A stretch of DNA of 32,000 nt from an uncultured archaeon (lineage in GTDB: Archaea; Asgardarchaeota; Jordiarchaeia; Jordiarchaeales; Jordiarchaeaceae): contig CAZECW010000196.1 in the NCBI GenBank assembly GCA_964510585.1, positions 23,685-55,684 of the forward strand. The letters are read 5' to 3'. Below are positions 21,351-24,300 of the stretch, piece after piece (position 1 is the stretch's first letter; each line of letters opens with the position of its first letter). Position numbers and translations under genes: made by a program. Under the pieces are notes generated by a model. That model saw only the letters and a program-made list of their open reading frames with translations. It made no database searches and was not told the origin of the DNA.

Positions 21351-24300
21351 ATGAAAATCCCCAGAAAAGTTGTAGCCCTTGCCTTAATCGTAACCTTCCT
21401 GTTCACTCTCCACGCTGGCTTAACCGCACTTCCCAAACAAAATATTTACCCAGCAAACTTCATAAATAACAATCATGGCTCTATCGAGTCGAAAATAGAT
21501 CCCTACCTCGCATCCCTGATTCAAAATGGAGGACTCCAAAGTTCCTCACAAACCGGTATAATAATTGTTTTTCAAGAGTCCAGTTTCAGCTCAGGACTCC
21601 AAGCCTTAAATTCAATGTTCCCAGAAATAGAAGTCAAAAAAATTTATGATTACATTCCAGCAGCCGCCGTAAAATCCCCCCTAAGTAATATTCCAAAAAT
21701 TGCTTCCCTCCCCCAAGTAAGCAAGGTTTGGTACGATTATCCCATCCAATTAGAACCCAAAAACTTGAAACAGTCGAATCCATCCAGCGGTGAAACCGCC
21801 CCTGATTTGAATGTTGAGGAGCTGTGGAGGGAAAATCTCAATGGTAGTGGCATCATAATTGCCCTCCTAGACAGTGGAATAGACACAAGCCACCCCGACC
21901 TTGACGACCTAGACGATAACAGTAGTACAAGCGACCCCAAAGTTATAGCAAGCGTCTCTATGGTTGAGTATGACCCCTTCCCCTATGACTTTAATGGGCA
22001 TGGAACATATGTGGCTGGCATCATAGCTGGAACTGGAAGCGCTTCCAATGGAACCTACAAGGGAATCGCGCCCCAAGCACGATTACTAAACGTTAAAGTA
22101 TTTGATGATGAGGGACTAAGCTTCTACTCCTGGACACTCTCGGGGGTAGAGTGGAGCGTTAGCCACGGAGCAGACATAATAGTTATTCCATTCGCAGGAC
22201 CAGGCTACCCAGACGACCCCCTATGCACCGCGGTAGACAAAGCGGTTAAATCCGGCGTCACTGTAATAGCTGCGGCTGGAGACGACGGCCCCGCTTATCT
22301 TAGTGTAGGGTCGCCGGGAATGGCTCTGAGCTGCATCACTGTGGGTTCTTATAACTCCTCCTCTGGGCAGGTGTGCTATAATAGTAGCCGAGGCCCCAGT
22401 TTCTTTATGTGGATGGATCCAGATATTGTAGCTCCTGGATATAATATTACTTCTTGTAGGGCAAAAACCGACCTGGGGCTGAATATTAGTTTACCCTACT
22501 TTAACACTAGCGGGTACGGCCGCCCAATCAACGAGAATTACACTTGTGCAACTGGAACAGCTGCTGCTACAGGTTATGTTGCAGGAGTAGCGGCTCTTTT
22601 ACTTCAAGCTTTTCCCTTCCTCAACCCTGAAGCTTTGAGAGTGGCGATGATGAAGACTGCTGTAGATCTAGGGGAGGATCCAAATACTCAAGGGGCGGGT
22701 CTTCTGGATGCTAATGCAACTTACAATTATTTGAAAAGTCTTGGTGAGCCTTCAGGGGAAGTCACCAGAGTGTTTACCCCCGGTTTACCCTATACTGGGT
22801 TTTTCTACTCGAATGACTCCGCTTCCCAACTGGAGACCTATTGCCTAGTGGGAACTTATGGTACATTTATCGGGATGTTGACCCGAAACTTAACTTCTAA
22901 TTTTAACAGCACCCACCTATTGCAAGGCCGATTTGGATTGAAATATAATGGAAGCAGTAACGTCACTCCTTTTCTGCTCACCACAGTATATCGGGAAATG
23001 CACTCAACTACGCTTCCGGGAGTGGGAGACTATGAGAGGGCGGTGACTGTACTGGGCAATGGAGACGTACTCATAATAATATCTGTAGACTGTTGGAATA
23101 GCACGGGATCCACTGGAGCATTTAGAATAAAGGTGACCCTGCTAAATGTTGGAAACACCCCTCTCAGGGATGTGACCTTGTTAACTGTCTGGGACGTAGA
23201 CCTTTTCTTAAACGAGTCCAGCTATGCTACAGATGACATTGCCCAATATAGTGATGTAGATGACCTAATCTATGCTTATGATGCTCATAATGATTATCCA
23301 GATGAAGTTTTGTATGTGGGTTTCAAGGGCAACATCTCCAGCGCCCACGAAGTAGGAGAAAATAGCTCGGTTCTAGAACACTTTCTAAGCGACGAACTAA
23401 ACAACGAGTCTTATTATAGTGGCAGTATTGGTTTTGCGTTGAGGTGGAGTTTATCTGAAGAGTTAAGCCCTGGGAGTAATGTGGATTTTGTTGGGGCTCT
23501 GGGAGCTGGTGGAAGCTACAGCCAAATGCAAACTGCAATTAACAACATTTTAGGGGCTGAAGTGCAAAATGTTACAGACCTATGTGTAGTTAACGCCTCT
23601 ATTAATCGTACAGGTAAACCCTATACTCCTTTTGCTTCAGAAAGCCTTATCCTAAACCTAGGCACCAACGTGACTAACGCTACTGCATTCTTTTTTGCAA
23701 ATAAGTCAAGTGATGGGAGCAGCATTGTATACCTTGAAATATTCCAGTACCAAGATCTTCAACCCTTCTCCTTCAGGAAAATATGCACCAGCTGGGAACC
23801 CACAAGCAGCGGAGTCTACGCTGTGGGATGGGTGACAACCGAGCTTCCCAACTTTTTAACACTGGAACAGATAATCTCGGGCAACATAACACTTAACATA
23901 AGTGAAACCTATCTTCTTGACAATTTCATTGCCCGAAACGTATTTGTGGGCACCCCCCCTAACTGCAGCATTCTTTTCCCCACAGCTATTCCTCATAAAC
24001 CGCTTGAACTCCGTTTCCCCCTAGACTTCGCCTACAACAATCTGACCATAGTAAGTCCCCACAAACTGGAAGATGTTCAAATAGTCTACTCCGGTAACGC
24101 GACTCAACTCTTCAACAACACTCCACAAAAAATTATCCAGAACAACTATGCAAATATATTAGTATCGTTTAACACCACGATTTTCCCCCGTCCCGGCTAC
24201 TACGTCGGCTTAATCCAAATCATGGCTAACGGTGAGTACCTGGGAAACGTGAGCATCAATTTTAATCTAAGCTATCCCGAAGGCAGACTATTCTTCGACA

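Follow-up and report, generated by a model that had tools for sequence, protein, structure and literature searches.

A subtilase homologue without its catalytic serine, fused to a GIFT domain and encoded beside ABC-2 transporter genes in Asgard archaea

The window analysed here is the whole 32,000-nucleotide stretch of contig CAZECW010000196.1 from an uncultured archaeon of the Jordiarchaeaceae, and its DNA came from a hot spring. On the + strand, an uninterrupted open reading frame of 1414 codons (21351-25595) encodes a large protein, P0001, in which a subtilase (S8) domain is joined to a long extracytoplasmic region with a GIFT domain. The Pfam model Peptidase_S8 (PF00082) matched residues 165-450 with 174 bits against a cut-off of 21.8, and this was the only S8 domain found. 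The gene, its S8 domain and the four catalytic positions are as follows.

21351-25595, + strand: whole gene, a membrane-anchored pseudo-subtilase of 1414 amino acids (aa) with a GIFT domain (open frame and orthologues)
21843-22700, + strand: subtilase (S8) domain without nucleophile, residues 165-450 (Pfam PF00082 and the substitution rates given below)
21870-21872, + strand: Asp174, the Asp of the catalytic triad, retained, codon GAC (sequence and HMMER alignment)
21999-22001, + strand: His217, the His of the catalytic triad, retained, codon CAT (sequence and HMMER alignment)
22281-22283, + strand: Asp311 in place of the oxyanion-hole Asn155, codon GAC (alignment; same codon in independent runs)
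22560-22562, + strand: Ala404 in place of the nucleophile Ser221, codon GCT (alignment; same codon in independent runs)

The catalytic positions were assigned by HMMER alignments to solved subtilases. The sequence GTAAATGYVAG of the protein was placed opposite GTSMASPHVAG of subtilisin BPN', and AAAGDDG opposite AAAGNEG; the nucleophile Ser221 therefore corresponds to Ala404 and the oxyanion Asn155 to Asp311. Around the nucleophile, the Met222, Pro225 and His226 of subtilisin are replaced by Ala, Gly and Tyr, respectively. The first-pass annotation of this DNA had reported the intact frame of 1414 codons and the retained Asp and His, whose coordinates were confirmed by codon arithmetic and the sequence. 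It had also named both catalytic substitutions with their positions and the three neighbouring changes, all of which the alignments reproduced. The protein has the fold and the sequence homology of family S8, lacks the Asp-His-Ser triad and the oxyanion Asn and, judged by these residues, is an S8 non-peptidase homologue and not a peptidase.

A nearby Cys, given as Cys400, or a Thr had also been proposed as a substitute nucleophile. The Cys is in fact residue 399 (Y397-T398-C399-A400); it is unique to this sequence, is not conserved among homologues and was rejected. Thr403 was likewise rejected, being the ordinary Thr220 of the canonical GTS motif. Inspection of the invariant columns of the family alignment revealed no conserved Ser, Thr or Cys near the site that could serve as a replacement. 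The Ser is kept in all four other S8 paralogues of the same genome, and one of these, L001, has canonical motifs throughout (GTSAS, AAGNEG). For two others, L004 (contig C2) and L005 (C67), the Ser is present and the oxyanion Asn is apparently absent (TGGGAI, AAGGYL), an assignment that comes from a five-sequence alignment and is not secure.

To define the family, the 120 top-ranking homologues that a database search gave for the S8 region were compared. Sixty-four of these have Asp at the oxyanion position (one of them Glu) and are 35-91% identical in the prodomain and S8 part; the rest of the 120 are ordinary S8 proteins with GTSMATPHV and GN. At the nucleophile site, the 64 members carry A (41), F (7), G (5), T (4), S (4), L (2) or D (1), and a Lys was observed in one further genome locus. 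Even in the closest group (76-90% identity, Jordarchaeaceae/Freyarchaeota) the site already varies between Ala, Leu and Phe. Asp311, found in the motif GD[DEGRS]GP, is nearly invariant and forms the signature of the family. Conservation of the Ala in orthologues had been suggested as a check on the first-pass annotation: the loss of the Ser proved to be clade-wide, but the residue that replaces it drifts (A/F/L/G/T/S/D).

A tree of the S8 domain was built without the four catalytic columns. All 64 members fell into one group of 66 tips, and monophyly of the 64 was not rejected (approximately unbiased test, p 0.17). The two extra tips have Asn again at the oxyanion site and Arg for His. Other branches additionally show R, E, A, S or T at the position of the His and S or G at that of Asp174, with Asp311 kept. 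On the evidence of these residues and the tree, serine-protease chemistry was lost once, near the origin of an old, Asgard-wide family. The changes were oxyanion Asn to Asp and replacement of the nucleophile Ser by Ala or another residue; some branches lost the His or the Asp at a later stage. P0069 (locus L114, 7001-11560) and P0067, which sit in the same type of ABC-2 operon, kept the oxyanion Asn and have Arg for the catalytic His, and P0069 also has the Ser. As far as their residues indicate, these two represent a different route to an incomplete triad inside the clade.

The ratio of nonsynonymous to synonymous substitution rates (dN/dS) was calculated against L090, a 90% identical orthologue at an unsaturated dS of 0.52. 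It was 0.107 for the whole protein and 0.071 for the S8 domain, the most constrained part of the ectodomain, with 0.076 for the cytoplasmic tail, 0.11 for both the middle region and the GIFT domain, and 0.16 for the prodomain. The neighbouring genes gave 0.03-0.12, among them 0.08-0.09 for the ABC ATPases. The value of the S8 domain is similar to that of the ATPases; the dead domain is as constrained as working enzymes. This calculation had been proposed as a check with the first-pass annotation, and its outcome is purifying selection.

The loss of the nucleophile could in principle reflect a mistake in sequencing or assembly or a pseudogene in decay, and the Ala codon (GCT) is a single base from a Ser codon (TCT). 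However, four metagenome runs from hot springs gave contigs in which the codons of Ala404 and Asp311 were both unchanged, so that none of them has a Ser codon at the nucleophile site; three of these runs are independent of the likely source sample. In two of the runs the match was a strain of ~98% identity, with 13-14 other substitutions over the 701 bases compared. A full-length orthologue was present in all five other genomes of the same genus, and the loss of the Ser is common to these genomes and to the orthologues. With an unbroken frame and dN/dS values of 0.07-0.11 in addition, an error or a pseudogene is already refuted by the homologues, the substitution rates and the independent runs, and we give it practically no chance. 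The earlier proposal of a maintained non-catalytic protein, as opposed to error or decay, has held up, given the clade-wide loss, the dN/dS of the S8 domain and the lack of a conserved replacement nucleophile.

The remaining parts of the protein were delimited from profiles, hydropathy and two AlphaFold2 (AF2) models.

21351-21431, + strand: N-terminal basic and hydrophobic segment, residues 1-27, a Sec-type signal peptide or signal anchor (hydropathy peak at 2-28)
21426-21800, + strand: I9-like prodomain, residues 26-150 (profile against ProN-Tk-SP, AF2 model)
22788-24275, + strand: beta-sandwich and two Ig-like domains, residues 480-975 (AF2 model mdd0d7cc80d5a)
24282-24923, + strand: GIFT / DUF4350 domain, class-I glutamine-amidotransferase-like, residues 978-1191 (family profile, Foldseek)
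24927-25250, + strand: Ig-like stalk domain next to the membrane, residues 1193-1300 (AF2 model)
25296-25364, + strand: transmembrane helix, about residues 1316-1338 (hydropathy; long helix in the model)
25365-25592, + strand: conserved, basic and helical cytoplasmic tail of ~76 residues (consensus, length, dN/dS)

A comparable N-terminus is present in nearly all family members. The model of residues 26-520, with a predicted local distance difference test (pLDDT) of 82.7 and a predicted template modelling (pTM) score of 0.86, matched the unprocessed pro-subtilases 3afg and 3whi, the best match being ProN-Tk-SP at a TM-score of 0.70-0.72. The family profile aligned with ProN-Tk-SP from profile position 14 onward (E 1.7e-80), so that profile and model agree on a propeptide of the I9 type. 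The second model, covering residues 480-1345 (pLDDT 87.6), consists of a large beta-sandwich, two Ig-like domains, an alpha/beta domain (978-1191), a further Ig-like domain and a long transmembrane helix. The family profile identified this alpha/beta domain as a GIFT domain, matching the N-domain of mouse IFT52 (E 1.6e-14) and site-1 protease (E 2.8e-7), and in Foldseek the domain reached TM-scores of 0.70-0.80 (target-normalised) against IFT52 N-domains. The best Foldseek matches of the C-terminal model as a whole were OST48/Wbp1, site-1 protease and IFT52. Scored as a single sequence against the Pfam models of the GIFT set (DUF4350, ABC_transp_aux and IFT52_GIFT), the domain gave 27.3, 26.9 and 25.1 bits, just below the cut-offs, and an NCBIfam search of residues 975-1345 gave no match at all.

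The cytoplasmic tail measures 76-79 residues in most lineages and shows the consensus pattern PELD...N..N. Helarchaeial members and P0018-P0021 have tails of only 12-25 residues, compared with ~76. At the other end of the protein, P0031, P0032, P0034 and P0038 (Helarchaeota; L007/L099) and P0071 (Ranarchaeia) have ~80-86 residues ahead of the position of Asp174, and there is therefore no room for an I9 prodomain in these Helarchaeial and Ranarchaeial members.

The protein contains 45 N-X-S/T motifs, compared with 14.8 +/- 3.3 in 2000 shuffles (maximum 24). All 45 lie within residues 164-1285, with 25 in the beta-sandwich and the two Ig-like domains (480-975), and none occurs in the prodomain or the tail. 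When 48 members of the family are taken together, composition predicts 1.14 motifs per 100 aa in the ectodomain and 3.18 are observed; the observed densities in the prodomain and the tail are 0.60 and 0.34. This distribution fits a mature part that faces outward and is glycosylated, and the low rate in the prodomain hints that this part is under a different regime and does not belong to the long-lived exposed surface. The first-pass annotation held that the prodomain could not be cleaved autocatalytically and may remain bound. The former stands, because the nucleophile Ser is absent, and the model does resemble unprocessed pro-subtilases. Lasting binding is doubtful, because Helarchaeial and Ranarchaeial members have no prodomain and the prodomain is poor in the motifs; its lack of enrichment would instead fit a transient part that is removed in trans.

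Immediately upstream, and divergent from the pseudo-subtilase gene, lies an operon for an ABC-2 transporter.

21286-21350, no strand: AT-rich spacer of 65 nucleotides that separates the ABC operon from the divergent pseudo-subtilase gene (coordinates)
19669-21285, - strand: long ABC ATPase, 538 aa, with an N-terminal extension of ~230 aa (Pfam ABC_tran at residues 242-384)
18474-19637, - strand: ABC-2 permease, 387 aa (Pfam ABC2_membrane_3, ABC2_membrane_2 and ABC2_membrane above cut-off)
17441-18445, - strand: short ABC ATPase, 334 aa (Pfam ABC_tran)

The same head-to-head layout was found in L009, L090, L091 and L092. The surroundings of the gene were compared over 27 distinct loci from at least nine Asgard families, and the ABC-2 permease, the long ATPase and the short ATPase adjoin it in 23 of the 27. 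Many lineages have the genes arranged as permease, long ATPase, pseudo-subtilase, short ATPase, and the ends of adjacent genes frequently overlap. The Lokiarchaeia have short ATPase, two permeases, long ATPase, pseudo-subtilase, and in the Jordarchaeaceae the pseudo-subtilase gene is divergent from the ABC operon. Active S8 relatives with a weaker GIFT signal or none (P0082, P0087) lie outside such operons. The long ATPase, homologues of which adjoin the pseudo-subtilase gene across Asgard families, is DrrA/NodI/GldA-like at scores below the NCBIfam cut-offs; the search of the ABC proteins against NCBIfam gave no named family above cut-off. Its N-terminal extension (residues 1-235) matched no Pfam or NCBIfam family, and a language-model look-up returned no usable match for it. 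This extension is a candidate partner of the cytoplasmic tail of the pseudo-subtilase.

Other genes surround this core. Downstream on the - strand (25772-31311) are four genes, for a 274-aa tetratricopeptide repeat (TPR) protein, a 140-aa protein, a 1075-aa TPR/SNAP-like solenoid and a 154-aa protein. The 274-aa, 140-aa and 1075-aa genes adjoin the pseudo-subtilase gene in both Jordarchaeales families (L006, L009, L091-L094), even where the ABC operon is elsewhere, and the 154-aa gene was seen in no family but that of the window, and there only at some of the loci. In the loci compared from other Asgard classes, none of the four was seen beside the pseudo-subtilase gene. At 15382-17429 on the + strand, a gene for an M42 peptidase and one for a protein of the PTA_PTB fold (MtxX-like) precede the ABC operon, a synteny shared with L009, L090 and L091. 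At the Helarchaeial locus L007, an OST3/OST6-like gene (412-981) is located 7 kb upstream, perhaps by coincidence.

To assess the distribution of the family, the family-specific middle and GIFT part was turned into a profile, with which 400 Asgard species genomes were searched. Matches at E <= 1e-10 were obtained in 338 of the 400, and full-length matches (E < 1e-90, open frames of ~1280-1790 aa) in ~130, as counted from the table. Under the names given by the sources, members belong to Jordarchaeaceae/Freyarchaeota, Helarchaeota, Lokiarchaeia, Thorarchaeota, Sigynarchaeota, Hermodarchaeota and Ranarchaeia. Public records label these proteins 'S8 family serine peptidase', a label that the residue losses indicate is functionally wrong for this family. 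Literature searches on Asgard pseudo-subtilases, on site-1 protease and OST48 in Asgard archaea and on Lokiarchaeal surface subtilases turned up no description of the family.

By analogy with GldG, the extracytoplasmic protein of a bacterial ABC-2 system described further below, the protein is probably a non-catalytic accessory subunit of the adjacent transporter. The catalytically dead S8 head would be displayed outside the cell on a long stalk of beta-sandwich, Ig-like, GIFT and Ig-like domains rich in N-glycosylation motifs, with the single C-terminal helix anchoring it in the membrane and the conserved tail in the cytoplasm. Its presumed partner, with which we infer a physical association, would be the ABC-2 transporter of one or two permeases and two different ATPases. 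The retained protease cleft would be a putative binding site for a peptide or protein, in which the invariant Asp311 may mark a new contact in place of the oxyanion hole. The transmembrane helix and tail would couple the ectodomain to the transporter, its ATPases or the extra domain of the long ATPase; the direction of this coupling, too, is what we infer. A complex prediction for the permease with residues 975-1414 gave no answer (score 0.00) and is evidence neither way.

Several observations weigh against an accessory subunit of this kind. Four distant members, P0040, P0051, P0052 and L097, again have Ser at the nucleophile site, and the Asp, His and Asp as well. Their positions in the family are nested within groups of relatives with Ala, and their motif is otherwise degenerate; with the Ser regained in these few, residual or regained activity is possible in parts of the family, as far as sequence can indicate. 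The gene lies away from any ABC operon in one Jordarchaeales family and in one paralogue group. In the Jordarchaeales family concerned, the ABC genes are still present elsewhere in the genome, and the unlinked copies of another family belong to the subgroup with Ser or Asp at the nucleophile site. Furthermore, the models of the GldG family were not matched: ABC_transp_aux (PF09822) scored 26.9 bits against 34.7, and residues 975-1345 had no GldG match in NCBIfam. On the paralogue subgroup itself, L097 (8318-12742), L098 (6884-11299), P0040, P0051 and P0052 combine Asp-His-Asp with Ser or Asp at the nucleophile site and have no ABC genes within ~7 kb. It is possible that the L097/L098 subgroup reacquired a nucleophile and now serves another function.

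Instead of serving a transporter, the protein might be mainly structural, a surface-coat component acting as glycocalyx or S-layer substitute, with the S8 head as a stable scaffold and the ABC-2 neighbours concerned with export, maturation or an unrelated process. Its very large size, the C-terminal membrane anchor and the three-fold enrichment of N-glycosylation motifs, confined to the ectodomain, would suit such a role, as would the members located away from ABC genes. Cultured Lokiarchaeia have no ordered S-layer and show unidentified protruding surface proteins (PMC9834061). The orthologues L100 and L008 are from cultured Lokiarchaeia. However, the S8 head is the most constrained part of the ectodomain and Asp311 is invariant even where Asp174 and His217 are lost, which argues for a specific site rather than a bare scaffold. 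A cytoplasmic tail conserved in length and sequence and a linkage to the operon that survives several rearrangements also speak against a coat, which we consider unlikely, though worth keeping in mind. It is more doubtful still that the protein regulates an active protease, either as a decoy that presents an uncleavable propeptide or its cleft to an active S8 paralogue, or as a receptor processed by a partner protease, like CspC/CspA with CspB. The four Ser-bearing S8 genes of the genome, including L001 with its canonical motifs, could supply such a partner, and a prodomain that is poor in glycosylation motifs and absent in some lineages would fit removal in trans. CspC itself provides the precedent of a pseudo-subtilase receptor (PMC6636752). 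No active S8 gene, however, is a conserved neighbour of the family; the conserved partners are the ABC-2 genes.

A hydrolase of non-canonical chemistry is very improbable. In such an enzyme, Asp311 and His217 might activate a water molecule, or an acid mechanism like that of the sedolisins might operate. Sedolisins (S53) use a Ser-Glu-Asp triad and carry an Asp at the position of subtilisin Asn155, which, with the near-invariance of Asp311, the Asp174 and His217 kept in this branch and the hot-spring source, is what recommends the idea. The likeness is limited to that Asp: sedolisins still need their Ser, whereas the Asgard protein has no Ser nucleophile and close relatives have Ala, Leu or Phe at the site. 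Whole branches have dispensed with Asp174 and His217 and kept all else, and the Met, Pro and His around the nucleophile have gone as well.

What is new here is a pseudo-subtilase in a new architecture and partnership; pseudo-subtilases themselves were already known. A dead protease head conserved as strongly as the neighbouring ATPases, a GIFT stalk and the link to ABC-2 genes together define an envelope system, hitherto undescribed, of the archaea most closely related to eukaryotes, and the family is a tangible candidate for the unidentified surface proteins observed by cryo-tomography. It also allows the GIFT domain, known from IFT52, OST48 and site-1 protease, to be studied in prokaryotes, and is a clear natural example of a pseudoenzyme whose successive residue losses can be followed through a phylogeny. 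There is a slim chance that more follows: that the family is among the unidentified proteins protruding from the S-layer-less Asgard envelope and acts as a mechanically coupled receptor driven by the ABC-2 transporter, and that the S8-GIFT-transmembrane module, or an active sister of it, is the prokaryotic stock of site-1 protease, OST48/Wbp1 or IFT52.

Among known proteins, the closest solved relative of the prodomain and S8 part is Tk-SP of Thermococcus kodakarensis (PDB 3afg). Tk-SP is an active secreted protease that was crystallised in the ProN form as a Ser-to-Ala mutant; the alignment shows GTAMAT at its motif, whereas the Ala of the Asgard protein is natural and conserved. Site-1 protease (MBTPS1/S1P/SKI-1) has the same order of parts, namely signal peptide, prodomain, S8, beta-rich region, GATase-like (GIFT) domain, transmembrane helix and cytoplasmic tail. 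Besides the profile match given above, its GIFT region was matched in Foldseek (E 3e-11), and an S1P cluster was the third-nearest by language-model features (0.86, to be read as a lead only). S1P is an active protease, however, and the closest matches of the S8 head here are Tk-SP and the subtilisins. A specifically S1P-like S8 head was rejected, as S1P was not in the best 60 PDB matches of the S8 profile; the Pfam model MBTPS1_4th (PF23090) scored 16.1 bits against a cut-off of 27.

OST48/Wbp1 was the top Foldseek match of the GIFT domain, beta domain and transmembrane helix (E 2e-13, ~420-430 columns, TM-score 0.40-0.43, target-normalised). The high rmsd of 16-17 Å suggests that the arrangement of the domains differs, and no OST48/Wbp1 chain was matched at the sequence level in the profile search of the PDB. 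Asgard WBP1 homologues have been reported only in Heimdallarchaeia (PMC10307638). The pseudo-subtilase family is found instead in Jord-, Loki-, Hel-, Thor-, Hermod- and Sigynarchaeial lineages. In FtsEX-EnvC, an ABC machine of the FtsX/MacB type controls an extracytoplasmic degenerate enzyme domain (LytM); with another class of transporter, another dead enzyme and no homology, the parallel is conceptual only.

CspC and CspA of Clostridioides difficile are pseudo-subtilases with an uncleaved prodomain that act as germinant receptors (PMC6636752). They share with the Asgard protein the subtilase fold, a degenerate triad, a prodomain without autoprocessing, and retention by selection for a non-proteolytic role, which in CspC is signalling or binding. 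CspC has lost His and Ser (T170, G485), whereas the Asgard protein keeps Asp and His and has lost Ser and the oxyanion Asn. 'Resurrection' mutants have been made for the Csp proteins (PMC7200643). CspC is a soluble protein of spores with a jelly-roll insertion and no stated link to a transporter; the Asgard protein, unlike it, is a membrane-anchored ectoprotein of ~1400 aa with a GIFT domain and an ABC-2 partner. Scores against the NCBIfam Csp models fell far short, at 48 bits against 675 for CspC_non_triad and 53 against 1250 for CspBA. GldG, of the GldA-GldF-GldG system of gliding Bacteroidota, is likewise an extracytoplasmic GIFT protein encoded beside an ABC-2 permease and a DrrA/GldA-like ATPase. 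It differs in having no protease domain, and the Asgard system in having two distinct ATPases, one of them with an extra N-terminal region of 230 aa. CspC/CspA are the nearest functional precedent for the Asgard pseudo-subtilase, and GldA/F/G the nearest precedent at the level of the system.

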